Assembly: GCA_965218795.1 (NCBI GenBank)
Contig: OZ244653.1
Coordinates: 3,008,001-3,072,000 of the forward strand
Direction: 5' to 3'
Length of the DNA: 64,000 nucleotides
Source: a bacterium
GTDB lineage: Bacteria > UBA8248 > JACPRG01 > G963555815
The notes under the pieces were generated by a model. That model searched no databases. It was not told the origin of the DNA and saw only the letters and a program-made list of their open reading frames with translations. Position numbers and translations under genes: made by a program. Below are positions 4,185-64,000 of this stretch, piece after piece; the stretch's first letter is position 1, and each line of letters starts with the position of its first letter.

Positions 4185-4303
4185 TGATTTATTCTTGGTT
4201 TCCGGGCATCGTCGATTCGTCGAGTTCACCAATGTCATCAACGGCAAGCTCTCCGGCTGAGTGCCTCCCGCTGCACGGGCAAAGGGGTGTGACGGGCTGA
4301 AGC

Positions 4304-11364: not shown

Positions 11365-11589
11365 GCCCGGGACATATCAAGAATCACCGTTTTTCCCCGA
11401 GGTTTTTTTTTGGGGCTCTCGCGTGCCGGCCATTTCCCGGATGAGATGATGCGGAGGGCGGTTTTTGAAAAGCGTTTCCCCACATTCCGGACAAGGAGTC
11501 CTCGTTCCGCGCCGAACCGTCACATGGTCGGTCAGATTCCTTCTCGCCGCGAGTAGGCCAAGCCTACAGCTTGGCCGTCAGGAGTTTTC

Positions 11590-13060: not shown

Positions 13061-13099
13061 ATCGACGCCATCGAGGCCGTCGTCCAGGGAAAGTATTGA
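12626..13099 (+). CDS. Mo-hydroxylase [2Fe-2S] small subunit
   Basis: GCEKGDCGAC, QCGFCTPG and NLCRCTGY motifs. Confidence 0.93.
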   Translation: MDRERTVRFELNGELVERRFRVNESLLNALRYELGATEVKNGCEKGDCGACVVLVDGRAENTCCMLAVQAAGKVVETVKGMGSVESLHPLQESFIELGAIQCGFCTPGMLCAAKGLLSEYPAASRDEIKVGISGNLCRCTGYVKIIDAIEAVVQGKY

Positions 13100-13197
13100 C
13101 GATGCCACAACGGAGGGACGCTCGATTCATCGCCATCAGGAAGATTGAGGGATGGGGTTGGCGGAGCGTCCGCCTTCCGGCCTCGTTCTCTCTCCTA

Positions 13198-14308
13198 GTG
13201 GACTGTAACATTGAGATAGCCAGTAATGTTTGGTACAGTATCATGCATGCCAAACACCCCCATTCAGCTGACTTCCGATGAAAGAGAAGAACTGCAACGG
13301 CGATCCCGTTCGCGCGTGCTGCGGTCCGAAGACGTCCGACGAGCCCAAGTCATTCTGATGCTCGATGCCGGGGAGTCCTATTTGAGGATCCAGCGCGCCG
13401 TGGGCTGCGATGCCCGGTATGTGAGCCGATGGAAGACCCGGTTCCAACAAGAGGGACTGGCCGGCTTGTATTCCAGACATTGCGGTCGAGCGGTTCACAA
13501 GCGCACCCCCCGGCTGGAGGCTCGGATTCTGGACTGGACCAGGCGCCGACCACCGGACGGAGCGACGCACTGGAGTAGTCGCAAGCTGGCGCGGCAGTTG
13601 GGCACCAACCACATGATGGTGGCCCGGGTTTGGAAACGTGCGGGTCTGCAACCCCACCGCATTCAACGTTACATGGCATCGAATGATCCGGACTTTGAGA
13701 AGAAGGCGGCCGATATCATTGGCCTCTATGTCAACCCGCCGCAACACGCCGCCGTTTTCTGTGTGGATGAAAAAACCGCCATTCAGGCCTTGGACCGATT
13801 CGATCCCGTGTTGCCGCTTTCTCCGGGTCGCGCCGAGCGTCACGGTTTCGAGTATTACCGGCACGGAACGCTCTCGCTGTATGCGGCCCTGAATACAAAG
13901 ACCGGCGAGGTCATCGGCAAGACCGCAGCGAGGCACACCAGCGAGGCCTTTGTGGCTTTCCTTTCTGGCATCGTGGCCAGACAACCCAAGCGGCGTGAAA
14001 TTCACATCATCGCAGACAATCTGTCGGCTCATAAGAGCCGCCGCGTGCGACAGTTTCTTGACGCTCACCCGCGCGTGCATTTGCATTTCACCCCAACTTA
14101 TTCCTCTTGGTTGAATCAGGTCGAAATCTGGTTCGCAAAAATCCAACGCGACGTCATTGCCCGCGGCGTCTTCACTTCGGTTCCTGATTTGGCTCGAAAA
14201 CTGATGCGCTATATTCGACAGTGCAACAAGAAACCCAAACCCATCAAGTGGAGCTATACTGATGGCTCACGGCGAATCACCACTAGCAAAGTCTCTGTTA
14301 CAAGGTAC
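13198..14308 (+). mobile_element. IS630-family insertion sequence
   Basis: Flanked by duplicated TA within CTAG (13196-13197, 14309-14310). Imperfect TIRs gtggactgtaacattgagatagccagtaat versus reverse complement gtaccttgtaacagagactttgctagtgat. Confidence 0.85.
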
Positions 14309-14311
14309 TAG
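13247..14311 (+). CDS. IS630-family transposase
   Basis: THWSSRKLA, SNDPDF, CVDEKTAIQAL, YYRHGT, IADNLSAHK and TPTYSSWLNQVE motifs; the stop TAG uses the target TA. Confidence 0.95.
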   Translation: MPNTPIQLTSDEREELQRRSRSRVLRSEDVRRAQVILMLDAGESYLRIQRAVGCDARYVSRWKTRFQQEGLAGLYSRHCGRAVHKRTPRLEARILDWTRRRPPDGATHWSSRKLARQLGTNHMMVARVWKRAGLQPHRIQRYMASNDPDFEKKAADIIGLYVNPPQHAAVFCVDEKTAIQALDRFDPVLPLSPGRAERHGFEYYRHGTLSLYAALNTKTGEVIGKTAARHTSEAFVAFLSGIVARQPKRREIHIIADNLSAHKSRRVRQFLDAHPRVHLHFTPTYSSWLNQVEIWFAKIQRDVIARGVFTSVPDLARKLMRYIRQCNKKPKPIKWSYTDGSRRITTSKVSVTRY

Positions 14312-14335: not shown

Positions 14336-16609
14336 ATGGAGGCTCTGAAGGTTGTTGGACAAAGCTTGCCGTTGAAGGACGCCACCGACAAGGCGGCCGG
14401 GACCGGCATGTACACGGTGGATATGTCCTTCCCGGGCATGCTGTACGGCAAGGTCCTTCGGAGCCCCCACGCCCATGCCCGAATCGTCAACATCGACGCG
14501 TCCAAGGCGCGCGCGCTGCCCGGCGTCAAGGCCGTCATCACGCCGGACGACGTGCCCCGGAACCCGTTCACAACGGCGGGACATCCGCCGCCTGATCCGA
14601 CGCCCGACGACCAGTTCATTCTCGATCACAAGGTCCGGTACGTGGGGGACAAGGTGGCCGCCCTGGCCGCCGTTTCCAACGAGGTCGCCCTGGAGGCCCT
14701 GGACCTCATCCAGGTCGAGTACGAAACGCTTCCGGCGTACTTCGATCCCCGAGACAGCTTGGCGGACGATGCGATCGACATTCACGATAACCTGGAGCAC
14801 GGCAGGAACACGGCGGGCTACATCCGCATGGAGGAAGGGGACGTTGAGAAAGGCTTCGCCGAGGCCGATCACGTGGTGGAGACGGTATGCGAGGTCCCCG
14901 GCCAGGCCCATTCGATGCTGGAACCCGTTGTCGCCCTGGCTCATTGGGAGACCGGCGGAAAGATCAACGTCTGGTCTTCTACGCAAATCCCCTTCACCCT
15001 TCGGCGGCTGATGCACGACGCCCTGGGCGTCCCGATCCGGAAGATCAGAGTGTATATGCCCATCGTCGGCGGAGGGTTCGGCTGCAAGCAGGACATGCAG
15101 GAGGAGCCTCTGTGCGCGCTTCTGTCCAAGGCGGCCGGGTATCGCCCCGTCAAGCTGGAATACACCCGCGAGGAGACCTTCTGCTCCTCCCGGATTCGCC
15201 ATCCCTACATTATGAAATCCAAGACGGGCCTGAAAAAGGATGGGACCATCACCGCCCGCTACCTGCACGCCCTCGCCAATACGGGCGCATTCAGCAGCCA
15301 CGGCCCCATCGTCACGGCGTATATGGGGGCGATGTGGCTCGCGCTGTACCGTTCGCCGCACCTCCTCTTTGAAGGCCAAACGGTCTATACGAACCTGACG
15401 ATTGCGGGGGCCTTCCGCGGCTACGGCGTCCCGCAGGGGACCTACGCCTGCGAGCTGCACATGGATCAAGTGGCGGCCGAAATGGGCATCGACCCGCTCG
15501 ACCTTCGTCGGGCGAACCACGTCCAATCCGGAGACATCCACCCAGCCACCAAGTGGAAGATTGAATCGTGCGAGCTTCGAAAGTGTATTGACTTGGGGGC
15601 GGAGGCCATCGGCTGGAATGAGAAACGCAACCGGAACGGCGGCGGCAGGCTGCACGGGGTCGGCGCAGCCATCTTCACCATCGCCAGCGGGGCGGCGCCG
15701 TTTGCGCTGGAAGCCTCCTCCGCCACAGTGCGCGTGCTCGAGGACGGGGGGCTCCATCTGAACATGGGGATTTCCGACACGGGCCAAGGTGTCGAGACCA
15801 CCATGGCGCAGATTGCGGCCGAGTCGTTCGGCGTCTCTTTGGACAAGGTGGAAACCAACCGGATAGTGGATACGGACACCTCACCCTACGACAACGGGGC
15901 CTATGCCACCCGGCAGGCCTACGTCTCAGGGATGGCGGCCAAGCTGGCGGCCGCGGAGGCCCGCAAGATGGTTCTGAAGCACGCTTCGAAGATGCTGGAA
16001 GCGGCCGTCGACGATTTGGACATCTCAGAGGACCAAGTCGTGGTCCAGGGCGCGCCGGACAAGGCCGTCGGCATCGGGGAGGTAGCCTTCGACGCCCAGT
16101 ACGGGGGGACGCCGCATGAGCTCGTCGGCCGCAGTGACTACACCCCGCCGACGAACGCGCCGCCGTTCGGCGCGCAGTTCGCCGAGGTGGAGGTGGATCC
16201 GGAAACCGGAGAAGTCCGCCTGCTGAATTTTGTCGCAGCCCACGACGTCGGCCGGGCCCTGAACCCCGTGGTCGTCCAGGGACAGGTCGAGGGCGGCGTG
16301 GCCCAGGGGATCGGGTACGGGATGATGGAGGAGATGGTGTTCGACGCCGAGACGGGAAGAACGCTGACCTCTGACTTCGCCCAGTATGAGATTCCGACGT
16401 CGATGGACACGCCCGAGATCGAACCGCTGCTGATCGAGGAGGGCGAGCCGACCGGCCCGTACGGCGCCAAGGGTGTGGGCGAGCCCGGAATCGTGCCGAC
16501 CGCTCCGGCCATCGCCAACGCCGTCTTCAACGCCATCGGCGTTCCCGTGAACGAGTTGCCGGTGACGGCGGAGCGGGTACTCGAAGCGCTTCGGGCAAAG
16601 AACGGTTGA
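14336..16609 (+). CDS. Xanthine dehydrogenase family Mo-binding large subunit (XdhA/nicotinate-dehydrogenase-like)
   Basis: LRSPHAHARI, GGGFGCKQ, GAFRGYGVPQ, GAYATRQ and AKGVGEP motifs; RBS AGGAGG. Confidence 0.93.
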   Translation: MEALKVVGQSLPLKDATDKAAGTGMYTVDMSFPGMLYGKVLRSPHAHARIVNIDASKARALPGVKAVITPDDVPRNPFTTAGHPPPDPTPDDQFILDHKVRYVGDKVAALAAVSNEVALEALDLIQVEYETLPAYFDPRDSLADDAIDIHDNLEHGRNTAGYIRMEEGDVEKGFAEADHVVETVCEVPGQAHSMLEPVVALAHWETGGKINVWSSTQIPFTLRRLMHDALGVPIRKIRVYMPIVGGGFGCKQDMQEEPLCALLSKAAGYRPVKLEYTREETFCSSRIRHPYIMKSKTGLKKDGTITARYLHALANTGAFSSHGPIVTAYMGAMWLALYRSPHLLFEGQTVYTNLTIAGAFRGYGVPQGTYACELHMDQVAAEMGIDPLDLRRANHVQSGDIHPATKWKIESCELRKCIDLGAEAIGWNEKRNRNGGGRLHGVGAAIFTIASGAAPFALEASSATVRVLEDGGLHLNMGISDTGQGVETTMAQIAAESFGVSLDKVETNRIVDTDTSPYDNGAYATRQAYVSGMAAKLAAAEARKMVLKHASKMLEAAVDDLDISEDQVVVQGAPDKAVGIGEVAFDAQYGGTPHELVGRSDYTPPTNAPPFGAQFAEVEVDPETGEVRLLNFVAAHDVGRALNPVVVQGQVEGGVAQGIGYGMMEEMVFDAETGRTLTSDFAQYEIPTSMDTPEIEPLLIEEGEPTGPYGAKGVGEPGIVPTAPAIANAVFNAIGVPVNELPVTAERVLEALRAKNG

Positions 16610-43165: not shown

Positions 43166-43710
43166 CTAGGCTTCTTTCCTCACAGGTTGGGTAAACTTCT
43201 TGACCGTGTCGATCGGTCGCCTCCCCATGTTGCGATACCCAACTCATGCAGTTTTTGATTGCCGCGCGTGGCGGCAATTGATTGAGAAGAAACCGGAGTT
43301 ATACACTTGACGCACCAGCCCCCATATGTAGATCCCGCCCTCATATCGGCTGACCACAAGATGTAGATCAGCCACCAAACGCTTGACCACTTCCCGTCAT
43401 TGGGTGTAGGTTGAATCTCGTAGGGCTGGAACCCCAAGGGAACCTTGGGGGGTTGCTGTGAGGAACGGGTTGGCACCCTCCTTTTAGCAAATCCCACCAC
43501 CCATGTCAACAGGATAGGTGCGTCCTAGGAGCGCAAAATGAGCCTGATTGATCGGATATTTTGTGGACATTGCCGCTTCAAAGTGAATGTGGATAAACCG
43601 GAGGGTAAGATAATTCGTTTGTATTGTACTACGTGCAAAATATCGGTTTGAGGTGGTCCCACTATCTTGGACAGTTAGGCGGCTGAGTGAAGGTGTATTC
43701 GGTTCATTGA

Positions 43711-44643
43711 TCATGCCGCCAGCGTCCTGTTTGACCCGTCTTTCTGTTCTGGTTGAGCCGGCAGAGGGGCAGGCAAGCGGTGGGGCTTGGCCTGCATCTG
43801 CGGCGGCAGTCCTTTTTCGTAGGCCTCGGCCGGGGTAGAGCCAGCCAGGGCGGAATGAGGTCTTTCGGTGTTATAGAAGTCGAGCCACTTGGCAATGGCC
43901 CTTTGGGCTGCGAAGCCGTCGGTGAGCTCGTGCAGATACACCGCTTCGTATTTGAGCGAACGCCAGAGGCGCTCGATGAAGATGTTGTCCATGCATCGGC
44001 CCCGGCCGTCCATGGAGATGGCGACGCCGGCGTCTTGGAGGACAGCGGTAAACGCGAGGCTGGTGAACTGGCTGCCTTGGTCGGTATTGAAGATCCGAGG
44101 CCGGCCGTAGCGGTCCAGGGCTTCGGTCAGGGCCTCGACGCAGAAGCGGGCATCCAGGGTGTTGGACAGCCGCCAGGCGAGCACACGGCGGGTGGCCCAG
44201 TCCATGACGGCTACCAGGTACAGGAAGCCGCGCTGGACGGGGATATAGGTTATGTCCGCGGTCCAGACCTGATTGGGCCGCTCGATGGCGAGTCCCTTGA
44301 GAAGATAGGGATAAACCCGGTGTTCGGGATGTGGTCTGGTGGTTCTCGGCGCTTGGTAGATGGCCTGTAGGCCCATCAGCCGCATCAGACGCCGAACCCG
44401 GTGACGACCGACACGGACTCCCTCGCGCCACAAATGACGGACCATCTGGCGGCTGCCGTAGAACGGGTATTTCAAGAACAACTCATCGATCCGCCGCATC
44501 AACGCCAGGTTCTGCGCACTCTCGCCCTTGGGCGTGTGGTACAGCGAGGATCGGCTGATGGAAAGCAGGCGGCATTGACGGCTCAAGCTGAGTTTGGGAT
44601 GGTCGCGACGGATCATGGCCCTGCGTCCCTCCCGGCTCACCAC
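43711..44643 (-). CDS. IS3 transposase OrfB (integrase core, DDE)
   Basis: FYGSRQM, WTADITY, FNTDQGSQF, DNIFIERLWRSLKYE and YNTERPH motifs. Confidence 0.93.
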   Translation of the reverse strand: MVSREGRRAMIRRDHPKLSLSRQCRLLSISRSSLYHTPKGESAQNLALMRRIDELFLKYPFYGSRQMVRHLWREGVRVGRHRVRRLMRLMGLQAIYQAPRTTRPHPEHRVYPYLLKGLAIERPNQVWTADITYIPVQRGFLYLVAVMDWATRRVLAWRLSNTLDARFCVEALTEALDRYGRPRIFNTDQGSQFTSLAFTAVLQDAGVAISMDGRGRCMDNIFIERLWRSLKYEAVYLHELTDGFAAQRAIAKWLDFYNTERPHSALAGSTPAEAYEKGLPPQMQAKPHRLPAPLPAQPEQKDGSNRTLAA

Positions 44644-44918
44644 TTGAGCCCTTTGGACAAAAAATCCCGCTCCACCGTCAACTCCCCGATCTTCGCATGC
44701 AGGTCCCGGATCTCCACCTCATGGTCCCCACGTGCCCGCTCCGCCCCCTTGGAGAATACCTCCTTCAGCCCCTCCACCGCTCGCTGCTTCCAGGCGCTCA
44801 CCTGGTTCGGATGCACCTTGTGCCGCACCGCGATTTCTTGAACCGTCTTGTCCCCGCGCAGTGCTTCCAGCGCTACCTTCGCCTTGAACTCCCCCGTGAA
44901 TCGCCGTCGTGTCGTCAT
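44637..44918 (-). CDS. IS3 transposase OrfA (HTH); probably fused to OrfB by -1 frameshift
   Basis: RRRFTGEFKAKVALEAL, HPNQVSAWK and KIGELTVERDFL; a T6 run in GATTTTTTGTCC lies near the overlap. Confidence 0.92.
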   Translation of the reverse strand: MTTRRRFTGEFKAKVALEALRGDKTVQEIAVRHKVHPNQVSAWKQRAVEGLKEVFSKGAERARGDHEVEIRDLHAKIGELTVERDFLSKGLKW

Positions 44919-45190
44919 TGCGTATCCCTCCCTCAGTCGGTGGAATACACCTTAGCAACCTGTCCGATTTGCTGGGACCACCTCAGTTGCAGGGAAGGAT
45001 GAAGTCAAGCTAATGCTGAAAGAGATGCTTCGTGAATGGAAAAAGGCGGACCTAGACGCAGCCATTGAGAAGTCACCATGGATCTCTATCGAAATTGACG
45101 GGATTGAAAGTGAATTCGAACCTGTCAAAGGGAAACCGAGAATGGAGAAAATCACTTCTAAATGTAATTTTTACTTCGAAGTTACTTGAC

Positions 45191-50384: not shown

Positions 50385-51254
50385 ATGTCCCGATTTGAAG
50401 TACTGGAGCCTGAAAACCTGGACGAGGCCCTTTCGCTGATGGGCCGTGAAGGGGAAGACGTTCCCGTCATGGCCGGCGGGGTGGCGCTCATGATCCTGCT
50501 GAAACAGCGGGTGATCCGGCCCGAGAGAGTCATCACGCTGCGCAAAATCCGGGAGATGCGGGAGATCCGGGACGATCCGGGTGTGGGAGTGAAAATCGGC
50601 TCCCTGGTGACCCATCGGGCCATTGAAGCTTCTCCTGTGGTTCGCAACCGATGTCCCGTTTTTGCCGAAGCGGAGCACTTGGTGGGCAATGTGCGGATAC
50701 GGAACATGGGGACCATTGGGGGCGAGCTCTGTCACGGTGACCCCCACAGCGATGCCGCGCCCGTTCTGGTGGGATTGGGCGCATCGGTCCGTCTGGTCGG
50801 CCCGGGCAGTTCCGGTCAGAGCCGAACCATCCCCATCAGCGAGTTTTTTCTCGATTACATGGAAACCGACGTCAAGCCGGGCGAGCTGCTGGCGGAGCTG
50901 ATGATCCCCGAGCCGCCGAAGGGCGTTCGCGCGACCTATCTCAAGCACGGGACATCGACTTCCACCGACTGGCCCGCCCTCGGAGTGGCCGCCTTCGTGC
51001 AGGGAAATGGCGGGGATGGTTCGGACGTGAGGGTGGTCATTGGCTCCGTGGAGGCGAAGCCCAAGGAGATCGCCGGCTTGAACGAATTGGCCCGCGGCCT
51101 GGCTCCGGGAGAAACGCTCTTCCGCGAGCTCGGAAAACATGCGGCATCCCAGGTGGATCCCCTCGACGACACCCGAGTGTCTCCGTGGTACAAAAAGCAG
51201 TTGACCGAGGTTTACACCGGACGCGCCTTGAAGAGTATTTGGACCGCACAGTAG
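50385..51254 (+). CDS. Mo-hydroxylase FAD-binding medium subunit
   Basis: MAGGVAL, VGNVRIRNMGTIGG, DPHSD and DPLDD motifs. Confidence 0.9.
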   Translation: MSRFEVLEPENLDEALSLMGREGEDVPVMAGGVALMILLKQRVIRPERVITLRKIREMREIRDDPGVGVKIGSLVTHRAIEASPVVRNRCPVFAEAEHLVGNVRIRNMGTIGGELCHGDPHSDAAPVLVGLGASVRLVGPGSSGQSRTIPISEFFLDYMETDVKPGELLAELMIPEPPKGVRATYLKHGTSTSTDWPALGVAAFVQGNGGDGSDVRVVIGSVEAKPKEIAGLNELARGLAPGETLFRELGKHAASQVDPLDDTRVSPWYKKQLTEVYTGRALKSIWTAQ

Positions 51255-51264
51255 GAGACCGGCG

Positions 51265-53613
51265 GTGGCAAAAACCGAAACGAACGGCCTCTCCATCGTC
51301 GGGAGGACTCCCGTACGGCTGGACGGGGTTGAAAAGGTCAGGGGCCTTTCCCCGTACTCGATCAACACCAAAGTTCAAGGGATGCTTCACGCCAAGGTAC
51401 TGAGGAGCCGGCTGCCTCACGCGAAGTTGCTCAGGGTGGATGCCTCCAGGGCGGAGAAGCTCCCCGGCGTGGCCGCCGTGGTGACTCGCGACGATGTCGT
51501 CGGACGCCAAGACCTCGACCCGTATTACGGCGTCGCGCTGCTTGACCAATCGATCGTGGCCATCGACAAGGTGCGGTTTGTGGGAGACATGGTGGCCGGT
51601 GTGGCTGCGGTCGATGCCGAGATCGCTGAAGAAGCGCTGGACCTGATCGACGTGGAGTACGAGGAGCTGCCCGTCGCCATGGACGCCCGCGAGGCCGCGG
51701 CGCCGGACGCCCCCTTGATTCACGAAGAGTTCCGGATGCCGAAGCGGTCGTACGGCGATCTGTCCACCATGAACAGCATTCCCGATTCGAACGTTCCCTA
51801 TCACTTCAAGCTGCGCCGCGGAGACGTGGAACAAGGCTTTCAGGAGTCGGACGAAATCTTCGAGGACGATTACTTCTGTCCGACGACCCAGCACATGGCC
51901 ATGGAGCCGCACGTCTGCATCGCGCAATGGGACCACAACGGCAAGCTCACCCTGTGGGACGGCACGCAGAACCCGTTCACGGTGCGCTCGGTGATGGCGA
52001 ACCTGTTTCAGGTCCCGGTGACGAAAATCCGGATTATCGTGCCGCATCTCGGATCGGGGTACGGAAGCAAGACCTATCCCAAGCTGGAACCTATTCTCGC
52101 CCTGCTGGCTCGGAAGACGGGCGGCCGCGCCGTGCGGCTGGAGCTGACCCGGGAAGAGGTGTTCTACACGGTCACGAAGAACGGCGCCTGGGTGAACATC
52201 CGGACCGGCATGAAGAAGGACGGCACCCTCCACGCGCGCAAGGTCAACATCCACTGGGACATCGGAGCGTATTGCGATATCTCGCCGCGCGTTGTGAAAA
52301 ACGGCGGTTATGTTTCCGCGGGCCCGTACCAGACCCCCCACATTTATGTAGATTCCTATTGCGTCTATACGAACAAACCTCCGGGCGGGGCGTTTCGAGG
52401 CTTCGGGGTTCCCAAGGTGGCGTGGGCCTTTGAGTCGCAGATGGATGACATCGCCCAGGCCCTCGGCATCGACCCGCTCGAGATCCGGATGAAGAACGTC
52501 GTTGGAGAGGGGACGATTTTCGCGACCGGCTCCAAGCTCCATAGCGTCGGGTTCAAGCCCGTCCTCGAGAAGACCGCCGAGGCCATCGGCTGGGGAAAGC
52601 CCAGCGAGCCCGCTCCTCCCGGGAAGGCCCGCGGAAAAGGAATGGCCTGCATCATCAAGAGCACGCTGACCCCATCGACGTCATCCGCGTTCGTCAAGGT
52701 CAATGAGGACGGCACGGTCTCGCTCCTGTCCAGCACGATTGAAATGGGGCAGGGGGCGGACACTCTGCTTTCCCAGATCCTGGCCGAAGAGATGGGGGTT
52801 CCGCTGTCGACGGTTTCCCGCGCCCAGCCCGATACGGACGTGACCCCCTATGACCTGACCACGAGTTCCAGCCGATCGACCTTCCACATGGGCCGTGCGG
52901 TCCGGCTGGCGGCCATCGACGCGCGCAACCAGATCCTGGACCTGGCGGCTGAAATGCTGGAGGTCAGCCCGGAGGACCTGACGCTCTCCGAGGGAAGAAT
53001 CTCGGTGCGCGGAAATCCGGACCGCGGTCTGGAGCTGGAAGAATTCGTGCAGGGTTACTTCAAGACGAAAGGCGGAAACATTCTCGGCCGGGGCGTGATC
53101 AAGACCGAGGGGGGCAAGCTGGACGCCGAGACGGGACAGGCCGAGATTACGACGGCGTTCTGGTTCGTCGGCGCCTGCGGCGCGGAGGTCGAGGTCGATA
53201 CCGAGACCGGAGATGTCCGCGTCCTGGACTTCGTCAGCGTGGTGGATTGCGGAAAGGCGATTCATCCGGAGCTCTGCCTGGGCCAGATCGGCGGCGCGGC
53301 CGCGCAGGGAATCGGTCAGACCTTTTACGAAGAGCTCCGCTTCGACAACGGGCAGCCGACCAATCCGAACTTGCTGGATTATTCGCTGCCGTCCTTCATG
53401 GAAACGCCCGATCGCTTCACGTCGCACTACATCGAGAACCCTCATCAGGAGGGGCCGTTCGGAGCGAAAGGAGTAGGGGAATCGTCCATCGGAGCGACGG
53501 CGCCCGCCATCGCCAACGCCATCTTTCACGCCGTCGGCGTTCGGCCCAAGGTACTCCCGATGACGTCGGAATCCATCCTGGCCTTGATCCACGAACAACA
53601 GGAGCAGGAATGA
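51265..53613 (+). CDS. Xanthine dehydrogenase family Mo-binding large subunit
   Basis: LGSGYGSK, GAFRGFG, EMGQG, TSSSRST and AKGVGES motifs. Confidence 0.93.
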   Translation: MAKTETNGLSIVGRTPVRLDGVEKVRGLSPYSINTKVQGMLHAKVLRSRLPHAKLLRVDASRAEKLPGVAAVVTRDDVVGRQDLDPYYGVALLDQSIVAIDKVRFVGDMVAGVAAVDAEIAEEALDLIDVEYEELPVAMDAREAAAPDAPLIHEEFRMPKRSYGDLSTMNSIPDSNVPYHFKLRRGDVEQGFQESDEIFEDDYFCPTTQHMAMEPHVCIAQWDHNGKLTLWDGTQNPFTVRSVMANLFQVPVTKIRIIVPHLGSGYGSKTYPKLEPILALLARKTGGRAVRLELTREEVFYTVTKNGAWVNIRTGMKKDGTLHARKVNIHWDIGAYCDISPRVVKNGGYVSAGPYQTPHIYVDSYCVYTNKPPGGAFRGFGVPKVAWAFESQMDDIAQALGIDPLEIRMKNVVGEGTIFATGSKLHSVGFKPVLEKTAEAIGWGKPSEPAPPGKARGKGMACIIKSTLTPSTSSAFVKVNEDGTVSLLSSTIEMGQGADTLLSQILAEEMGVPLSTVSRAQPDTDVTPYDLTTSSSRSTFHMGRAVRLAAIDARNQILDLAAEMLEVSPEDLTLSEGRISVRGNPDRGLELEEFVQGYFKTKGGNILGRGVIKTEGGKLDAETGQAEITTAFWFVGACGAEVEVDTETGDVRVLDFVSVVDCGKAIHPELCLGQIGGAAAQGIGQTFYEELRFDNGQPTNPNLLDYSLPSFMETPDRFTSHYIENPHQEGPFGAKGVGESSIGATAPAIANAIFHAVGVRPKVLPMTSESILALIHEQQEQE

Positions 53614-54083
53614 TCATGAGCGGCCGGCCCTTGACACTTTCCGTCAATGGGAAGACGCACGAAATCACGGTTCCCGCCCACAAGTTGCTGCTTGATGCTT
53701 TACGGGAAGACCTGGGATTGGTGGCCACGAAGGAAACCTGCAGCCTCGGCGCCTGCGGGGCCTGTACGGTCCTTCTCGACGGCGAGCCCATCGCCTCGTG
53801 TATCACACTGGCCCGGTATGCCGAAGGCCGCGAGGTCATCACGCTCGAGGGAATCGAGAAGAACGGGGAGCTGCATCCGCTCCAAAAATCGTTTCTCGCG
53901 CATAACGCCTTCCAATGCGCATTCTGCACGCCCGGGATGATCATGATGGCCTGCGGCTTGCTCAAGGACAACCCCAAGCCCAGCGAGGCGGAGATCCGGG
54001 AGTATATGGCGGGGAACATCTGCCGCTGCACGACGTATCACGAGATCATCCGTGCCATTCAGGACGCCCACAACTTCACCTGA
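53610..54083 (+). CDS. Mo-hydroxylase [2Fe-2S] small subunit
   Basis: TCSLGACGAC, QCAFCTPG and NICRCTTY motifs; ATGA overlap. Confidence 0.93.
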   Translation: MIMSGRPLTLSVNGKTHEITVPAHKLLLDALREDLGLVATKETCSLGACGACTVLLDGEPIASCITLARYAEGREVITLEGIEKNGELHPLQKSFLAHNAFQCAFCTPGMIMMACGLLKDNPKPSEAEIREYMAGNICRCTTYHEIIRAIQDAHNFT

Positions 54084-57839: not shown

Positions 57840-58301
57840 TCAGCCGCGGTTTGCGAGCTCGTTATCGAGGGCTTTGAAGAACTGGCCCATCAGAAGCCTG
57901 GACACGCCGCCCAGCATCCGCTGGCCGACGCCGGCGATCACTCCGCCCACCTGTACATCCCCTTCTACATTCAGCACCGTCTGGTCTCCGTCGGGCTCCA
58001 GCCGGATCGCGGCGGACCCTCTCATGAATCCGGGGGCGCCGCTCCCTTCCACGATCATCCGGTAACTTTCCGGAGGCTGGACGGCTTCCATCATCACCGA
58101 GCCGAAAAACTCACCCTTCACCGGCGCCACACCCACATTGAGCTTCGCCTCGAACGCTCCGGGGGCGGTCTCCTCGAGATGCTGACAGCCCGGTATGATC
58201 TTCGTGAGAGCATCCGCATCCATGATGAGATCCCAGACCTTTTGTTGGGGCGCCTTGAGCTTGTGCTTGCCTTGAACTTTCAAGATGTTTTCTCCGTTCA
58301 T
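57840..58301 (-). CDS. coxG: CoxG/SRPBCC family protein
   Basis: VWDLIMD, IPGC, VGVAPVKG, VGGVIAGVGQRM and QFF motifs. Confidence 0.85.
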   Translation of the reverse strand: MNGENILKVQGKHKLKAPQQKVWDLIMDADALTKIIPGCQHLEETAPGAFEAKLNVGVAPVKGEFFGSVMMEAVQPPESYRMIVEGSGAPGFMRGSAAIRLEPDGDQTVLNVEGDVQVGGVIAGVGQRMLGGVSRLLMGQFFKALDNELANRG

Positions 58302-58449
58302 ACGAAACCCGTCGGGGCTTCAAGGTCGTTCTCAGAGAGAACTCTAATCGAAATTCCATTCCCTCGACAACCGCCGTCTCTTGGGGTTCGATGGGATCCG
58401 GGGGAGGATGGCTTCGCTCGAATTGAATGGAGCGCGCGCCGGAGGAGTG

Positions 58450-60747
58450 TCAGCCGGCCCGCTTTTCCTGCAACGCGGACAAAATCTTTTCCGCAGTGAC
58501 GGGGAGGTCCTTGATGCGGACGCCCACGGCGTCGAAGACAGCGTTGGCGATGGCAGGGGCCGTCGGCACCAGGACGGATTCTCCCATTCCCTTCGCCCCG
58601 AAGGGTCCGGTCGGGTCGGGATTCTCGAGGGTCCGGTATTCAATGGGTGGAACGTCGAGGGTCGTCGGTATCTTGTAGTCCACCATGGTCCCGTTGGTCA
58701 GCGCGCCCTCCTCAAAGCGCAACTCTTCCGCCAGGGCGTATCCAATCCCCTGTGTGACGCCGCCCTCGATCTGTCCTTCGAGCCCTCCGCGGTTGATGAC
58801 TCGACCGACGTCGTGTGAGCAGACCAGTTGGAGGAGCTCGACTTCTCCCGTTTCCTCGTCCACTTCCACTTCCGCGATGTGCGCGACGTATCCATGGGCG
58901 GGGAACTCGTGCATCGGGGCTCCTTCCCAGTATTCGGGCACGGAGGGTGGCGTGGGGGGGGACCAGGACCCTTTCCCGATGATCGGCCCGTCTTGATGGA
59001 TGTTGGCGGCCCTGACAATCTCCGCAAAAGAGAGCCCCCTGTCCGGAGAGGATGAGATGAAGACCCGTTCGTCCTCAATTTGCAAATCTTCCTGCGGAGC
59101 CTCCAGCATGTCGGCCGCGCGGCGGAGGAGTTCATCCCGGGCATCCATGGCCGCCAGACGGACGGCGCCGCCCATCGTCAAGGTGGATCGGCTGGCGCCG
59201 GTGAACAGGTCGAATGGCGTAAGGTCCGTATCGCTCGCAACAATTCGCACTTTTTCATAGGGTACGCCCGTGACCTCCGCGGCAAGCTGGGCGGCGACCG
59301 TGTGCTGGCCCGCGCCGATTTCCACTGTCCCCGTCACGACCTGAAGGCTCCCGTCCGACATCCATTTGACGTTTGCGGAGGAGCTCCAGCCCCCCGTCGG
59401 ATGGGACGCCGCGGCGATCCCGATCCCTCGTTTTCGCCCGTTGGAACCGCTCTTCTTCCCCTTGCCCCATCCGAACGCCTCGACGGCCAGATCCAGCGTT
59501 TCGCGGAACCAAACATCGGGAAAACGGGCACCGTTGACCATCATGTCGTTGGGCCCGAGTCCGTTCAGGCGGCGAAGCTCAACCGGATCGATGTCGAGCG
59601 ATCGGGCAATGACGTCCATTTGGGATTCGGTGGCAAACGTCACCTGCGGGTTGCCGTAACCCCGGAACGCTCCGCTCATGTTCTTGTTCGTGTAGACGAC
59701 GCGCGCCTCGATATTGACATGGGGGGTCTTGTAAGGCCCGCGCGCCTTGAAGCCCCCGAAGGAAGCGACCGACGGGCCATGATCCGCGTAGGCCCCCGTA
59801 TCCATGACCATTTTGAAATCCCATGCGGTGAGCGTCCCGTCGCGTTTGACGCCCGACCTGATATCGATGATGGCCGGGTGGCGCTTGAACGTGACCGCGA
59901 AGTCCTCCTCGCGCCCGAGGATGACGCGAACGGGTTTGCGTGTCTTGAAGGCCAGAGCGGCCGCATAGAGGTCCGCCCGGGGTTTTTTCCCGCCGAAACC
60001 GCCTCCTACGGCCGAACTGATGACACGCACGCGCGTTCCCGGGATGTCCAGGAGATGGACGATCCATTCCTGAATCTTCGACACCCCCTGCGTGGTCGTC
60101 CAGACCGTCAGATCACCGGCCGCCCCGCAATCCGCCAGGGCGGCGTGGGTCTCCAGGTACGTCGGGTGGTGGGAATGCGTGGTGTATCGGTTCTCGATGA
60201 CCTCGTCGGCTTCGCGCAGGCCCGTCTCCACGTCTCCATAACGAAACCCCAGGCGGCAAACCTGGTTTCCTTGCCTCCCGACCACCTCGTAATACGATTT
60301 GTGCTCGGCAAAGTCCTCGTGGATGAGCGGGGCGTCGGGCTCGAGGGCTTCCAGGGGGTCGAAGATGGCCGGCAATTCCTCATACTCGACTTGGATGAGG
60401 TCCAGGGCCTCTTGGGCGGTGTCGTCGTCAACGGCGGCTACGGCCGCGATTTCGTCTCCGACGTACCGTACCTTTTCATCATGGAAGAGGGTCTGGTCCA
60501 GGATCCATTGGCCGTAGTGCGTCCGGGGAAGTCCGCCGGCCGTCAGGACGGTTTCGACTCCTTTGTGTTTGAGCGCCTTGGAGGTATCGATGTGGAGAAC
60601 CCGTGCGTGCGGGTAGGGGCTGCGAAGGATTCGCCCCTGAAGACATCCGGCCTTCCTCAGGTCGGCCGCGTATTGGGATGCCCCCGTGGCCTTGGGCACT
60701 CCGTCTATCCGCGGAACGCTTTTCCCGAGAACCCGGTGTGCGTTCAA
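58450..60747 (-). CDS. Xanthine dehydrogenase family Mo-binding large subunit (no co-transcribed M/S genes)
   Basis: LRSPYPHAR, VGGGFGGK, GAFRGYGNPQ, TGASRST and AKGMGES motifs; TTG start. Confidence 0.93.
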   Translation of the reverse strand: MNAHRVLGKSVPRIDGVPKATGASQYAADLRKAGCLQGRILRSPYPHARVLHIDTSKALKHKGVETVLTAGGLPRTHYGQWILDQTLFHDEKVRYVGDEIAAVAAVDDDTAQEALDLIQVEYEELPAIFDPLEALEPDAPLIHEDFAEHKSYYEVVGRQGNQVCRLGFRYGDVETGLREADEVIENRYTTHSHHPTYLETHAALADCGAAGDLTVWTTTQGVSKIQEWIVHLLDIPGTRVRVISSAVGGGFGGKKPRADLYAAALAFKTRKPVRVILGREEDFAVTFKRHPAIIDIRSGVKRDGTLTAWDFKMVMDTGAYADHGPSVASFGGFKARGPYKTPHVNIEARVVYTNKNMSGAFRGYGNPQVTFATESQMDVIARSLDIDPVELRRLNGLGPNDMMVNGARFPDVWFRETLDLAVEAFGWGKGKKSGSNGRKRGIGIAAASHPTGGWSSSANVKWMSDGSLQVVTGTVEIGAGQHTVAAQLAAEVTGVPYEKVRIVASDTDLTPFDLFTGASRSTLTMGGAVRLAAMDARDELLRRAADMLEAPQEDLQIEDERVFISSSPDRGLSFAEIVRAANIHQDGPIIGKGSWSPPTPPSVPEYWEGAPMHEFPAHGYVAHIAEVEVDEETGEVELLQLVCSHDVGRVINRGGLEGQIEGGVTQGIGYALAEELRFEEGALTNGTMVDYKIPTTLDVPPIEYRTLENPDPTGPFGAKGMGESVLVPTAPAIANAVFDAVGVRIKDLPVTAEKILSALQEKRAG

Positions 60748-60899
60748 GATTCCGCCTTTTCAAAAGGAGAAGACCCTTTTTGTCGTGACCGCCGTTCTAG
60801 CGACAAAGATACAATTTCATTATTATATTATAAGTGTTGCAACCGTGTTCTGGAGTGAGACCTTCCGGAGCGAGTCGTCGAACGGTTCCTTTGCGCGGT

Positions 60900-62330
60900 T
60901 TTCGATGAGTCCGAATCCAGAGGGGAGTTCGGTACAAATCGCCGCGATGGATTTTGAGAGAAAAGAGAGGGTAGAGCGGACATGAAGCCAGCCGCATTTT
61001 CGTACGTATCACCGGAGACGGTTTCAGAGGTCATGGAGTTGTTGGGCCGTTACGGTGAGGATTGCAAGCTGCTGGCAGGGGGTCAGAGCCTGCTTCCGAT
61101 GCTGGGGATGCGCCTTCACCGTCCCTCGGTGGTGGTGGATCTGAACCGGGTGGCGGAGTTGTCGGGGATTGAGGAGGCGAACGGCACGGTGCGCATTGGA
61201 GCGATGACGCGGCACTCGTCGGTGGAGCATTCGCCGTTGGTCGCCTCGCAGGTGCCGTTGCTGTCCCAGGCGGTTCCTCAGATCGGCCATGCGGCGATTC
61301 GGAACCGAGGGACGCTGGGGGGGAGCGTGGTCCACAATCACCCGGCCTCCGAGTTGCCTGCGGTGGCAGCGGCGCTGGATGCGGAGTTGGTCGTTCGGGG
61401 TCCTTCGGGAGAGCGGACGCTGGGTCCGGGAGCGTTTTTCACCTCATATCTGTCCACCGCCCTGGGCGAGGATGAGTTGTTGACGTCGGTGCGTTTTCCG
61501 GTATTGGGGTCGGATTGGCGGACGTCGTTTTTGGAGTTTTCGCGTCGTGTGGGAGACTTTGCGCTGGTGGGGGCGGCGGTGGCGGTTCGGATGGAGGGGG
61601 GCGGTTGCGCGGAGGGCCGGATCGCGCTGACGGGCGTGGGGGGGATACCGACGCGTGCGCGTGGGGCGGAGGGCCTGTTGTCGGGGGCGGTGCTGGATGC
61701 GGAGTTGTTGTCAGGGGTGTCCGAGGCGGTGAAGGGAGAGGTGGAGCCGCTGTCGGACTTTCACGGTTCATCGGATTACCGTCGTCACTTGTGCGGGGTG
61801 TTGGTGGGTCGGGCGCTGGCGTCGGTGTCGGAGGGGGTCGGGTAGATGAGCGTTTTGGAGCCACAGGGCCGTTTGCGCGTGGAGTTGGAGGTGAACGGGG
61901 AGTCCCGTAGCGGTGAGGTGGAGGCCCGCAAGAGCCTAGCGGACTTTTTGCGGGAGGACCTTCGTCTGACGGGTACGCACGTGGGTTGCGAGCAGGGGGT
62001 GTGCGGCGCTTGCACGGTTTTGCTGGAGGGGGAGGCGGTGCGTTCGTGCCTGATGCTGGCGGCGCAGGCTTCGGGCCGTTCGGTGGAGACGGTGGAGGGA
62101 CTGGCGCCTCCGGAGGGTCCGCTTCACCCGATCCAGGAGGCGTTTCGGACGCACCATGCGCTTCAGTGCGGGTTTTGCACGCCGGGTTTTTTGATGACGC
62201 TGAAGTCTGCGCTGTCCGCGCCGCGTACGTGGAGCCGAGAGGAGATTCGTCACCTGCTGTCGGGGAACGTCTGCCGTTGCACGGGCTATCAGCACATCGT
62301 AGACGCGGTGGAGACTGCGGCGCGGGAAAT
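60900..62330 (+). other. Second tract of intense G>C and T>A skew (GRINS-like)
   Basis: Hand counts: 61501-61560 G24 C8 T22 A6; 61681-61740 G32 C8 T12 A8. C-ending codons return in the next gene. Boundaries are approximate. Confidence 0.75.
60982..61845 (+). CDS. Mo-hydroxylase FAD-binding medium subunit (CoxM-like)
   Basis: MKPAAFSY, LAGGQSL, IRNRGTLGG, RRVGDFA and DFHGSSDYRR motifs. Confidence 0.93.
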   Translation: MKPAAFSYVSPETVSEVMELLGRYGEDCKLLAGGQSLLPMLGMRLHRPSVVVDLNRVAELSGIEEANGTVRIGAMTRHSSVEHSPLVASQVPLLSQAVPQIGHAAIRNRGTLGGSVVHNHPASELPAVAAALDAELVVRGPSGERTLGPGAFFTSYLSTALGEDELLTSVRFPVLGSDWRTSFLEFSRRVGDFALVGAAVAVRMEGGGCAEGRIALTGVGGIPTRARGAEGLLSGAVLDAELLSGVSEAVKGEVEPLSDFHGSSDYRRHLCGVLVGRALASVSEGVG

Positions 62331-62358
62331 GCATGACCCGGTGGGTCCCCCATCATGA
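61846..62358 (+). CDS. Mo-hydroxylase [2Fe-2S] small subunit (CoxS-like)
   Basis: GCEQGVCGAC, QCGFCTPG and NVCRCTGY motifs. Confidence 0.93.
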   Translation: MSVLEPQGRLRVELEVNGESRSGEVEARKSLADFLREDLRLTGTHVGCEQGVCGACTVLLEGEAVRSCLMLAAQASGRSVETVEGLAPPEGPLHPIQEAFRTHHALQCGFCTPGFLMTLKSALSAPRTWSREEIRHLLSGNVCRCTGYQHIVDAVETAAREMHDPVGPPS

Positions 62359-64000
62359 GTTCGGACCTGCACTGGAACCCCCGGTTCTTCGGGGCCCGCG
62401 TCACGAGAGTCGAGGATCAGAGACTCCTGACAGGAAACGGCCGGTACGTGGATGATCTCCCGGACCGGGACGCCCTCCACGCCGCATTCCTTCGCTCCCC
62501 CTATGCCCACGCGAAAATCACGTCGATTGACGTGACCGGAGCCCTGGAAGCAGGCGCGATTGCCGCCTTTACCGCTCACGACATGGGTGATTGCTGGAAG
62601 GAGTTGCCGGTCCCCATCCCCCATCCGGCGTTGCGGCCGCACAATACGGTCCCCCTGGCGAAAGACAAGGCCAAGTACATGGGCGAGCCGGTCGTCGTCG
62701 TGCTGGCGGAGAGTCGGGCCGCGGCCGAGGATGCGCTCGAGGGCGTCCGGGTCTCTTATGAGATTCTGCCGGCGGTCGCGCATCCGATTGACGCGCTGAA
62801 GGACGACGCCCCTTTGGTCCACGACGACCTGGGAGACAACGTGGCGGCGCACCTGGAGGTCCGAATCGGGGAACCGGACGAGGCGCTCGATGCTTCTCCG
62901 AACCGCGAGACCCTCCGTCTGAAAATGCAGCGTGGGGGCTGCGGGGCCATGGAGACCCGCGGCCATCTGGCGTCCTACGATCCCAAGTTCGATCATCTGA
63001 CCCTCTACGCCACCAGCCAGACGCCGCACCTGTTGCGAAGCGACCTGGCTTATATGCTGGGTCGGTCGGATGGCTCCATCGACGTGGTGGCACCGGACGT
63101 CGGGGGCGGATTCGGCCCCAAGGCCTATCCCTATCCGGAAGATACGGTGATCGCCTGGGCGGCCATCCGCATGAAGGGAAGCGTCAAGTGGATCGAAGAC
63201 CGGATTGAGCATATCCAGTCCACGGTTCAGGAGCGCGAGCAGCACCACGAGGTGGAGATCGGTTTCGATGAGGAGGGACGCCTTCTGGCGCTCAAGGATC
63301 GCAGCGTGTGCGACATCGGCGCGTACCTGCCCTGGAGCATTGTGGTTCCCCTCCTTTCGGTGACCTGCATTCCCGGCCCGTACAAGCTCCGGAACTTCTC
63401 CGCCGCCATGGACGTCGCCTATACGCACCGGGTGCCCGTTGCACCGGTCCGGGGGGCGGGACGTATTCAATCGGTCTTCATCATGGAGCGCGCGCTGGAC
63501 CATATCGCGGACCGGCTCGGGAAGGATCCGGCCGAGGTCCGCCACGAGAACTACGTCCAGCCGGACGAGTTCCCGTATGAGGTCGGTCTCCGCGCCCGCG
63601 ACGGCAGCATGATGACCTATGACAGCGGAGATTATCCGAGGCTCCTGGAAATGGCCAAAGAGGCCTCGGGGTACGAGGAGTTCCGAAAGGGAAATCGCCC
63701 GCCCGGCGAAGAGAACGATCCGGAGAGCGGGATCTACGTGGGGATGGGGATGAGCTGCAACATCGAAGGGACGGGGTTCGGTCCCTTCGAAGGAGCGGTG
63801 ATCCGCATCGAGCCATCCGGCCGGATCACTCTCGCCACAGGCGCCGCGTCCCAGGGACAGGGACACGAAACCGTTCTGGCCCAGGCCTTGGCGGACGTAT
63901 TGAACGTATCGCCGGAAGACGTCACGGTCGTGACGGGCGATACGCGGGCCATCCCGTACGGCTATGGCGCCTTTGCCAGCCGAATAGCCGTCATGGCGAC
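62355..64000 (+). CDS. Xanthine dehydrogenase family Mo-binding large subunit (CoxL/CutL-like), partial
   Basis: Not in ORF track because it runs off the window. Hand translation: MSSDLHWNPRFFGARVTRVEDQRLLTGNGRYVDD...DVGGGFGPK...APVRGAGR...YDSGDY...GAFASR. Confidence 0.92.
   Translation, partial: MSSDLHWNPRFFGARVTRVEDQRLLTGNGRYVDDLPDRDALHAAFLRSPYAHAKITSIDVTGALEAGAIAAFTAHDMGDCWKELPVPIPHPALRPHNTVPLAKDKAKYMGEPVVVVLAESRAAAEDALEGVRVSYEILPAVAHPIDALKDDAPLVHDDLGDNVAAHLEVRIGEPDEALDASPNRETLRLKMQRGGCGAMETRGHLASYDPKFDHLTLYATSQTPHLLRSDLAYMLGRSDGSIDVVAPDVGGGFGPKAYPYPEDTVIAWAAIRMKGSVKWIEDRIEHIQSTVQEREQHHEVEIGFDEEGRLLALKDRSVCDIGAYLPWSIVVPLLSVTCIPGPYKLRNFSAAMDVAYTHRVPVAPVRGAGRIQSVFIMERALDHIADRLGKDPAEVRHENYVQPDEFPYEVGLRARDGSMMTYDSGDYPRLLEMAKEASGYEEFRKGNRPPGEENDPESGIYVGMGMSCNIEGTGFGPFEGAVIRIEPSGRITLATGAASQGQGHETVLAQALADVLNVSPEDVTVVTGDTRAIPYGYGAFASRIAVMA

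Follow-up and report, generated by a model that had tools for sequence, protein, structure and literature searches.

A two-copy, strand-skewed cassette of molybdenum hydroxylase subunit genes with GRINS-like properties in an uncultured bacterium

GRINS are duplicated regions with nucleotide skew, and they were described in 2021 without a mechanism (PMC8256042). Here we describe a GRINS-like tract in a 64,000-nt window (the whole stretch of DNA that was analysed; contig OZ244653.1, bases 3008001-3072000) from a bacterium of the GTDB lineage UBA8248. Its genome, called G000 below, is a single contig of 5,174,045 bp with 60.5% G+C. The tract, called B, carries two genes for the medium (M) and small (S) subunits of a predicted molybdenum hydroxylase; a first tract of the same kind, called A, lies nearer the start of the window. 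By the operational definition a GRINS is a duplicated region of more than 500 bp with more than 80% DNA identity, and a threshold of 0.15 applies to the mean absolute GC skew and the mean absolute TA skew (PMC8256042). The two skews are reported to correlate along the element with r of about 0.70, and GRINS outside polyketide synthase (PKS) clusters mostly overlap transposases, other mobile-element genes and endonucleases (PMC8256042). The main text of that paper makes no mention of dehydrogenases, tuf or elongation factors; its supplementary gene-family tables could list them. Among five publications on GRINS with the words "nucleotide skews", none deals with mechanism, as judged by title and the start of the abstract.

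Tract B is a GRINS by every element of the genome-wide definition. It is 1632 bp long with 100% identity to its partner and has mean absolute GC and TA skews of 0.27 and 0.24; the values for tract A are 1380 bp, 99.93%, 0.33 and 0.24. The skew of the B M gene is strongest at third codon positions. The GRINS-like label given to both tracts in an earlier note on this DNA, made from the letters of the window, therefore fits the published definition (PMC8256042). A third cassette pair (C, outside the window) and the tuf genes pass the GC threshold (0.27 and 0.30) and fail the whole-sequence TA threshold (0.12 and 0.11). Among 2000 random 1.3-kb windows, 0.9% pass 0.15 on both measures and 0.1% pass 0.2 on both. 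Marginal passes were found for five multi-copy segments and one 541-bp two-copy segment (0.18-0.21 and 0.17-0.18). The correlation between GC and TA skew is r=0.54 in B and r=-0.08 in A. The original GRINS requirement of a partner in the same PKS cluster does not hold here, the partner being 2.38 Mb off and neither locus being PKS.

Tract B resembles the published elements in its long near-identical repeat, mean skews above 0.15, third-position peak and some effect on amino acids, and in being tied to gene conversion between homologous modules with no established mechanism (PMC8256042). It differs in lying outside PKS or any biosynthetic cluster, with copies 2.4 Mb apart in different operons. 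Polarity is uniform here (the coding strand is G/T-rich), whereas it switches abruptly in GRINS. Only two copies exist, at 100% identity, and the paired state is conserved across genera. The net change here is mainly C>G and A>G, while the tautomer model of the GRINS paper predicts C>T and A>G. We regard the finding as a new GRINS example outside antibiotic genes, with unusually informative controls.

The second comparable system is the concerted evolution of tuf. A 2018 survey reports, in its main text, 26 genes with long-lasting concerted evolution (Wang and Chen, Commun Biol 2018, PMC6053082). The terms "dehydrogenase", "molybd" and "skew" are absent from that main text, so that neither the M/S subunits of molybdenum hydroxylases nor any nucleotide skew figures in it. 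As with tuf, cassette copies are two, dispersed, identical within and diverged between genomes, and, like the surveyed genes as the main text presents them, they encode proteins that are part of stable complexes. In G000 the tuf genes also share the recoding of the M/S genes.

GC-biased gene conversion raises G+C symmetrically on both strands. The likeness to it lies in the idea of a fixation bias from heteroduplex repair and in the A>G synonymous gain seen here. The unlikeness is that G+C at third positions is unchanged in the skewed genes, the effect being a strand asymmetry of G over C.

Cassette B, its partner locus and its counterparts in other genera

Repeat copy B1 (60881-62512, plus strand, 1632 bp; BLASTN and ungapped flank comparison) is predicted from Pfam domains to encode the M and S subunits of a molybdenum hydroxylase of the xanthine dehydrogenase / CO dehydrogenase family. 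Gene families of the window were assigned by Pfam, and all domains are above curated cut-offs. The repeat opens with a 101-bp non-coding leader upstream of M (60881-60981, plus strand; G35 C18 T22 A26). The M gene (60982-61845, plus strand) encodes a 287-aa flavin adenine dinucleotide (FAD)-binding medium subunit with the domain pair FAD_binding_5 and CO_deh_flav_C (PF00941, 2.1e-48; PF03450, 6.2e-25). The S gene (61846-62358, plus strand) encodes a 170-aa small subunit with two [2Fe-2S] domains, Fer2_2 and Fer2 (PF01799, 6.2e-31; PF00111, 3.4e-08), and the cysteine motifs CEQGVCGAC, CGFCTPG and CRCTGY in its translation. The start codon of the molybdopterin-binding large subunit (L) gene overlaps the end of S by four bases. 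This L gene (62355-64000, plus strand, running off the window) has the Ald_Xan_dh_C, MoCoBD_1 and MoCoBD_2 domains expected of the family (PF01315, PF02738, PF20256). Its first 158 nt are within the repeat.

B1 is identical over its full length to an inverted copy (B2) at genome 686347-684716, 2.38 Mb away (BLASTN). Ungapped flank comparison found no similarity beyond the borders, even one base out. Tract A (copy A1, window 11739-13118, plus strand) has its partner A2 at genome 987625-989004, and cassette C is found at 3274277-3275659 and 4894168-4895550 (1383 bp, 99.86% identity); the flanks of these pairs are unrelated too. The earlier note had named the lack of a repeat partner for both tracts as an observation that would speak against its reading, and it had stated that B is not a near-identical copy of the tract at 11.6-13.1 kb. 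Both tracts have a partner, and the best alignment between B and A reaches only 69% identity over 205 nt. The B repeat is also visible in independent sequencing runs. Run X1 yielded one short-read contig of exactly 1632 nt corresponding to 60881-62512, with flank contigs ending at 60910 and starting at 62483. The 3' border (62512) recurs in runs X7 and X8 of other studies, where the cassette carries 13 (X7) and 18 (X8) substitutions; these strain differences are too few, and unpolarised, for a mutation spectrum. Since short-read contigs break at the 62512 border in three runs of three studies, the repeat is not an assembly artefact.

The borders of the two copies give a direction for the most recent event. 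The N-terminus of L is native at the window locus: a gene of a third genus (G003, 600 contigs) is 76% identical in protein over residues 1-548. At the partner locus (684400-684716) a fragment of 52 codons from the window's L forms the end of the repeat, and 135 nt of unrelated DNA separate it from the start of the partner's own L. The reading frame of the fragment closes 10 nt past the ATG of that L. The partner's L is the ortholog of an L gene in G004 and G006 (75.6% aa identity), and a 6-phosphogluconolactonase gene lies upstream in all three (partner locus, G004 and G006). Because the L fragment is native at the window and a dead end at the partner, the last event is read as having run from window to partner: judged by its borders, the latest B transfer copied the window cassette into the partner locus and left a non-homologous 3' joint, or scar. 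The co-transferred piece of L is unskewed, which fits a long-term process acting on M+S only. We also attempted to derive the G000 B cassette from a B1- or a B2-type locus by protein identity, and this was abandoned as the M identities do not separate (68.6% with the G003 ortholog, 68.8-69.5% with those of G004 and G006).

Cassettes A and C are paired in a second genus as well. G004 (a 7-contig genome of another genus of the same family) holds cassette A twice, with 100% identity over 1393 bp and unrelated flanks, and cassette C twice, with 100% identity over 1387 bp. The G004 and G000 copies share 76% (cassette A) and 81% (cassette C) identity. One G004 A copy sits between the same two neighbours as the window copy, an amidohydrolase gene (89% aa identity) and L (80%). 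CoxD- and CoxE-like genes (81% and 68% aa) come after the other, an arrangement shared with the 0.99-Mb locus of G000. One G004 C copy adjoins a hydantoinase gene (80% aa). For cassettes A and C the paralogs of G000 and G004 are thus more alike than the orthologs. Within-genome paralog identity exceeds ortholog identity in at least two lineages, which is long-lasting recurrent concerted evolution in the sense of the 2018 survey (PMC6053082). Pairs at orthologous positions whose copies match within each genome and differ between genomes are the signature of long-term gene conversion. On these comparisons the M+S cassettes are evolving in concert over the long term.

Cassette B appears to be paired in G001, which belongs to the window's genus. 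Four contig ends of G001 match the four flanks of B1 and B2. Two ends start inside M, one leading to the ortholog of the divergent L gene upstream of B1 (80.6% aa) and the other to a different flank. Two ends lie in the last 26 codons of S, one leading to the ortholog of the window's L (83% aa) and the other to that of the partner's L (83% aa). This looks like a two-copy repeat collapsed in a short-read assembly. The G001 B-type loci are 98.4% identical over 312 nt, comprising the end of S and approximately the first 230 nt of both L genes. The shared tract of G001 extends into two functional L genes with no scar. In G003 one ortholog each of A and B was found, on contigs running through and unskewed (third-position GC/AT skews -0.10/+0.03 and +0.08/-0.21), in a 600-contig assembly that may hide further copies. 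A 1373-bp contig of a Candidatus Latescibacterota metagenome-assembled genome carries an M gene 87% identical in protein, with third-position GC and AT skews of +0.57 and -0.54. In a sponge metatranscriptome (run X17), a near-identical 557-nt contig covers 62063-62619 and bridges S into L, with possible DNA carry-over; X17 covers 10 of 30 bins, and the uncovered bins are uninformative.

Taken as a whole, we consider it probable that B is a two-copy M/S cassette kept identical by recurrent ectopic gene conversion and skewed at synonymous sites. The two copies, 2.38 Mb apart in different operons, would be homogenised by conversion, and the adjacent substrate-specific L genes would be free to diverge. 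The three unrelated M/S cassettes of G000 would behave alike, and each is recoded toward G (and T) on the coding strand.

Extent, codon position and distribution of the skew

Within the window, GC skew above 0.2 in 1-kb windows is confined to 11001-13500 (0.205-0.328) and 61001-62500 (0.264-0.321); no other 1-kb window falls outside -0.134 to +0.161. At 200-nt resolution the GC skew over 60800-62199 is +0.22 to +0.49, with AT skew down to -0.47, and the GC skew has fallen to +0.05 at 62100-62299. The base counts of the earlier note were exact on recount (61501-61560, G24 C8 T22 A6; 61681-61740, G32 C8 T12 A8). For the M gene of B, GC/AT skew is +0.57/-0.44 at codon position 3, +0.33/-0.30 at position 1 and -0.12/-0.23 at position 2. 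The S gene has third-position GC and AT skews (GC3 and AT3 skew) of +0.45 and -0.56. In 40-codon windows starting with the first codons of M, the position-3 GC skew runs at +0.35 to +0.86, and in the last computed S window (codons 121-160) it is still +0.29. The sign flips right at the S/L border. Third positions of L codons 1-52 comprise G14 and C27, in agreement with the earlier claim that C-rich codons resume in the large subunit. The CoxD-like gene after the S gene of copy A2 is likewise unskewed (GC3 skew 0.00). As L overlaps S by four bases and yet is unskewed, the skew follows the M+S unit and not the gene cluster.

The M and S genes of cassette A1 (11752-12621 and 12626-13099, both plus strand) have GC3/AT3 skews of +0.49/-0.61 and +0.40/-0.59. 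Two further sets in the window serve as internal controls. The single-copy M/S set at 8284-9656 (plus strand) gives GC3/AT3 skews of 0.00/-0.18 for M (8284-9162) and -0.08/+0.06 for S (9117-9656). The single-copy M, L and S-containing genes at 50385-54083 (plus strand) give +0.02/-0.14 for M (50385-51254) and -0.20/+0.05 for S (53247-54083). The observation that two other M/S sets of the window do not look skewed was therefore correct.

The genome was scanned in 51,735 windows of 600 nt (GC-skew standard deviation 0.077). Beyond an absolute value of 0.25 there were 112 windows, merging into 30 regions. An excess of G over C together with one of T over A on the coding strand is seen in only 4 of the 30, each of them an M/S gene pair (the two window tracts, 684901-686200 and 987601-989100). 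Skewed regions at 3.27, 3.30, 3.32 and 4.89 Mb were considered as rRNA and this was ruled out; they are M/S pair C and the two tuf genes. We then compared 4094 open reading frames (ORFs), called by a simple heuristic and not by a gene finder, for which the mean GC3 skew is -0.04 (standard deviation 0.11) and the mean AT3 skew -0.12 (standard deviation 0.16). The 14 most skewed of the 4094 by combined third-position skew are all members of near-identical gene pairs: ten M/S genes, the two tuf copies and two copies of a 105-aa IS3-type helix-turn-helix gene. Skew scattered at random over unrelated single-copy genes, the other observation that the earlier note had said would speak against its reading, was thus not what the scan returned. 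The skew is confined to the FAD and 2Fe-2S gene pair within the operon, as had been proposed; elsewhere in the genome the tuf pair and two transposase-related pairs are also skewed. These two pairs have coding-strand G/T third-position skew, with GC3/AT3 values of 0.38/-0.50 for HTH_Tnp_1 (2004095-2004412 and 1880392-1880709) and 0.20/-0.51 for DDE_Tnp_1_4 (4663509-4664912 and 4668008-4669411). They fit the GRINS paper, in which transposases are the commonest non-PKS GRINS (PMC8256042).

Among the M genes the skew goes with duplication. All six duplicated M genes are skewed (GC3 skew +0.42 to +0.57, AT3 skew -0.44 to -0.69) and none of the 19 single-copy M genes is (GC3 skew -0.19 to +0.17); with three pairs against 19 singles the chance of such a split is 1/1540. 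G3+C3 is unchanged by the skew (0.70-0.82 in skewed M, 0.72-0.87 in single-copy M). In the M tree the three skewed pairs fall in three separate, well-supported clades among unskewed paralogs, which indicates that the skewed state arose three times. In G004, with all 22 M genes compared, the five highest skews belong to orthologs of the skewed G000 cassettes: 0.35-0.36 for the A pair, 0.28-0.30 for the C pair and 0.26 for the single B ortholog. None of the remaining 17 falls outside -0.18 to +0.09; among them is a 100% identical M pair found only in G004, which is unskewed (-0.01/+0.08) and whose G000 ortholog at 2103030 is single-copy. This pair is a useful negative control for recent duplication.

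We also surveyed unskewed duplicates among the 54 two-copy pairs of G000 (20 proteins from 19 pairs were annotated). The proposition that every non-mobile identical duplicate is skewed was refuted by unskewed, 99-100% identical pairs of cellular genes. They include ATP-binding cassette (ABC)-transporter operons, MMPL, EamA, NMT1, enoyl-CoA hydratase, autotransporters and a transglutaminase-like gene. The enoyl-CoA hydratase, EamA and NMT1 genes (3 of 3 tested) have in G004 at most one close ortholog plus a distant paralog. Since no maintained pair exists in G004, these three pairs are taken as recent duplications of the G000 lineage.

The recoding of the M/S genes is a shift among synonymous codons. 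Third-position G makes up 0.56 in the skewed M/S genes against 0.37 in the unskewed ones; the figures are 0.22 against 0.39 for C, 0.05 against 0.11 for A and 0.17 against 0.13 for T. Four-fold families move from C-ending to G-ending codons (GCG, ACG, GTG, TCG and CCG up; GCC, ACC, GTC, CTC, TCC and CCC down). A-ending codons are nearly gone, GAG, AAG and CAG dominate, and TTG, CGT, GGT, CCT and TTT are more frequent. The two-fold NAY codons remain C-ending. The amino acid shift is modest, with Ser, Val and Leu up and Asn, Gln, Ile, Asp, Thr and Pro down. At synonymous sites, cassette B compared with its unskewed G003 ortholog gives C>G 37 v 6, A>G 18 v 4 and C>T 17 v 17 (forward v reverse), and cassette A gives C>G 47 v 6, A>G 22 v 3 and C>T 28 v 6. 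The net flows for tuf are C>T 40 v 4 and A>G 16 v 6. In-phase TGG occurs 0.081 times per codon in skewed M/S, 0.088 in tuf and 0.043 in unskewed M/S and the genome, and GTG codons are 2.7-3.6x enriched. TGG phase was set aside as independent evidence, as it follows arithmetically from G3 enrichment.

The two tuf genes (3304957-3306169 and 3321442-3322654; 1213 bp, 100% identical, 16.5 kb apart) run parallel to the cassettes. Conversion between tufA and tufB has reportedly been seen in Salmonella. The G000 tuf genes have a GC3 skew of +0.39 and an AT3 skew of -0.54, and the other ORFs listed across the ribosomal/rpoBC/fusA region range from -0.27 to +0.20. In their deviation from genome-average codon usage, skewed M/S and tuf correlate with r=0.70. 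The 29 ribosomal/rpoBC/fusA genes correlate with r=0.19 (with M/S) and 0.18 (with tuf), and their own usage is genome-average. Two tuf copies about 16 kb apart are found in every well-assembled genome of the class. Across 24 genomes the tuf GC3 skew ranges from 0.01 to 0.55 and is usually above that of its neighbours.

Explanations for the skew

The link between skew and conversion is a strong association. It was observed for three cassettes and for tuf, and in two genomes; recent duplicates serve as its negative controls. Which of the two is the cause is a separate matter. We favour, tentatively and short of conviction, the reading that the skew is a by-product of long-term conversion. Strand-asymmetric mismatch handling in the recombination heteroduplex would favour G on the coding strand, over C as well as over A, and this bias would build up only in repeatedly converted DNA. 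Which mismatch arises from a G/C or an A/T difference would depend on the strands that pair: G.G or C.C in the first case, A.A or T.T in the second. Mismatch repair treats G.G and C.C, and likewise A.A and T.T, unequally. Unequal repair of this kind could yield strand asymmetry with no change in G+C, as observed. A link to the direction of transcription would be needed in addition, to account for the single polarity. The earlier note had suggested a targeted mutational or gene-conversion process; the conversion half of this is borne out by copies identical within a genome, 76-81% identical between two genera and syntenic, and the half that invokes targeted mutation stays a suggestion.

A wider form of this reading is speculative and on present evidence rather doubtful: GRINS-type skew in general may be the cumulative footprint of long-term ectopic conversion, with C>G and A>G driven on the coding strand of any repeatedly converted DNA by a strand-asymmetric bias of conversion or repair, such as the unequal treatment of mismatches described above. 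Such a footprint would mark old converting pairs (three M/S cassettes and tuf), and recent duplicates would lack it. On this view G/T skew at third positions could be used in any genome to detect concerted evolution and to date it, and GRINS in PKS genes would be explained.

Several observations weigh against conversion as the source of the skew. A moderate skew (0.24-0.26; S 0.36-0.37) is seen in the B ortholog of G004 and G006, although it is single-copy there, and tuf, paired in every well-assembled genome of the class, varies from unskewed to strongly skewed; two converting copies are therefore neither strictly necessary nor sufficient for strong skew. Unskewed identical pairs exist in both G000 and G004. 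The last B transfer, with its non-homologous 3' joint, is not textbook conversion. All cassettes share one polarity, which a pure heteroduplex-repair bias does not predict. The net flows are pairwise, taken against one unskewed ortholog and over partly saturated sites, so that they give a direction and not rates.

The alternative that survives best, though we think it rather unlikely, reverses cause and result. Coding strands that are rich in G/T and have G at the first and third codon positions would be better RecA substrates and would undergo more ectopic recombination, so that skew causes conversion. RecA is said, on work attributed to Tracy and Kowalczykowski in 1996, to prefer GT-rich DNA. 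RecA filaments self-align to TGG of 3-nt period and bind it with high affinity (PMC5587095), and in-phase TGG is in two-fold excess in skewed M/S and tuf, an excess that is not independent of G3 enrichment. The GRINS authors put forward much the same idea, an easier conversion of skewed regions (PMC8256042), and the skew already present in the single-copy B ortholog of G004 and G006 agrees with it. The proposal leaves the origin of the skew unexplained, and it has to accommodate identical pairs that are unskewed. The skewed single B ortholog, the variable tuf skew and the unskewed identical pairs weigh against simple versions of the conversion-bias and skew-first readings alike.

Transcription-linked mutational asymmetry, by deamination of C and A on the non-template strand, or R-loops that provoke recombination, is improbable. 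It would account for the G/T-rich coding strands of all cassettes and tuf whatever their replication orientation, and for the C>T and A>G excess in cassette A (28 v 6 and 22 v 3) and tuf (40 v 4 and 16 v 6). It does not account for the end of the skew at the S/L border despite the four-base overlap, or for the unskewed CoxD gene after the S of A2. The RNA-library contig that bridges S into L points the same way, weakly, as DNA may be present. In M/S a transversion, C>G, makes up the largest net flow (37 v 6 in B, 47 v 6 in A), and in B C>T shows no net direction (17 v 17). The NAY codons keep C, and the highly expressed ribosomal, rpoBC and fusA genes are unskewed. Plain transcription-linked deamination is thus unlikely.

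Replication bias is excluded. By cumulative GC skew, replication starts near 3.476 Mb and ends near 0.828 Mb. Five cassette copies (both of A, both of B and one of C) are head-on to replication; under replication skew head-on genes would be C-rich, yet their coding strands are G-rich. The earlier note had also judged that the skew was not a replication-strand effect, and the A and B copies confirm this. The origin is no more than 0.46 Mb away from A1, B1, C1 and tuf, and the terminus no more than 0.16 Mb from A2 and B2.

Translational selection is more improbable still. Under this explanation M/S and tuf would be very highly expressed and use optimal codons, with duplication for dosage. tuf is typically among the most expressed genes. 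Domain matches in the genome number 73 for the L domain MoCoBD_1 (approximately 71 L genes) against 25 of M type and 28 of S type. Most L genes thus lack a dedicated M/S set, and no L gene adjoins cassette pair C or copy A2. It is likely that many L subunits draw on the same M/S modules, and generic modules might be needed in quantity. Against this, the 29 ribosomal-protein, rpoBC and fusA genes, which are highly expressed, keep genome-average codon usage, and no optimal-codon set is therefore detectable behind the pattern. First codon positions and amino acid composition are shifted as well, and the L gene that overlaps S is unskewed. An assembly duplication, or a recent acquisition with donor composition, is hardly credible: 100% identity over 1.6 kb could in principle be mis-assembly, but contigs of three runs from three studies break at 62512 with flank contigs leading in from both sides, and syntenic loci in other genera carry the same cassettes. 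A skew of this kind is not produced by any whole-genome composition, and it agrees with that of the resident tuf.

This family of uncultured bacteria is a clean natural experiment. It has tuf and three cassettes of one module type that are phylogenetically separate, and each of these is kept as an identical pair in more than one species or genus. Built-in controls are the unskewed single-copy orthologs, the unskewed recent duplicates and the unskewed L gene overlapping S by four bases. These controls exclude replication bias and ordinary codon adaptation and argue against plain transcription-linked deamination. The dominant net change, C>G, is not predicted by the published tautomer model. The arrangement may be a way to keep electron-transfer modules interchangeable (25 M and 28 S for approximately 71 L) while the substrate-binding subunits diverge.

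Other genes and repeats in the window

Upstream of B1 a second L gene is transcribed divergently (58450-60747, minus strand), followed on the same strand by a CoxG-like gene (57840-58301). Both are outside the repeat and unskewed, with GC3 skews of -0.14 and +0.05, respectively (57840-60747). In cassette A an insertion sequence (IS) element (13195-14311, plus strand) with a DDE_3 transposase gene (13226-14311) lies between S and the L gene (14336-16609, downstream of the IS element). Five further full copies of this element and one partial copy (909 nt) are found in the genome with 99.2-100% identity. It is absent from the orthologous G004 locus, where S is followed directly by L.

Two multi-copy repeats of the window are unskewed. 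The repeat at 3440-4187 (748 bp, approximately 99% identity) has matches at about five other places, and the repeat at 43649-44985 (1337 bp, 92-100% identity) has matches at about seven other places.

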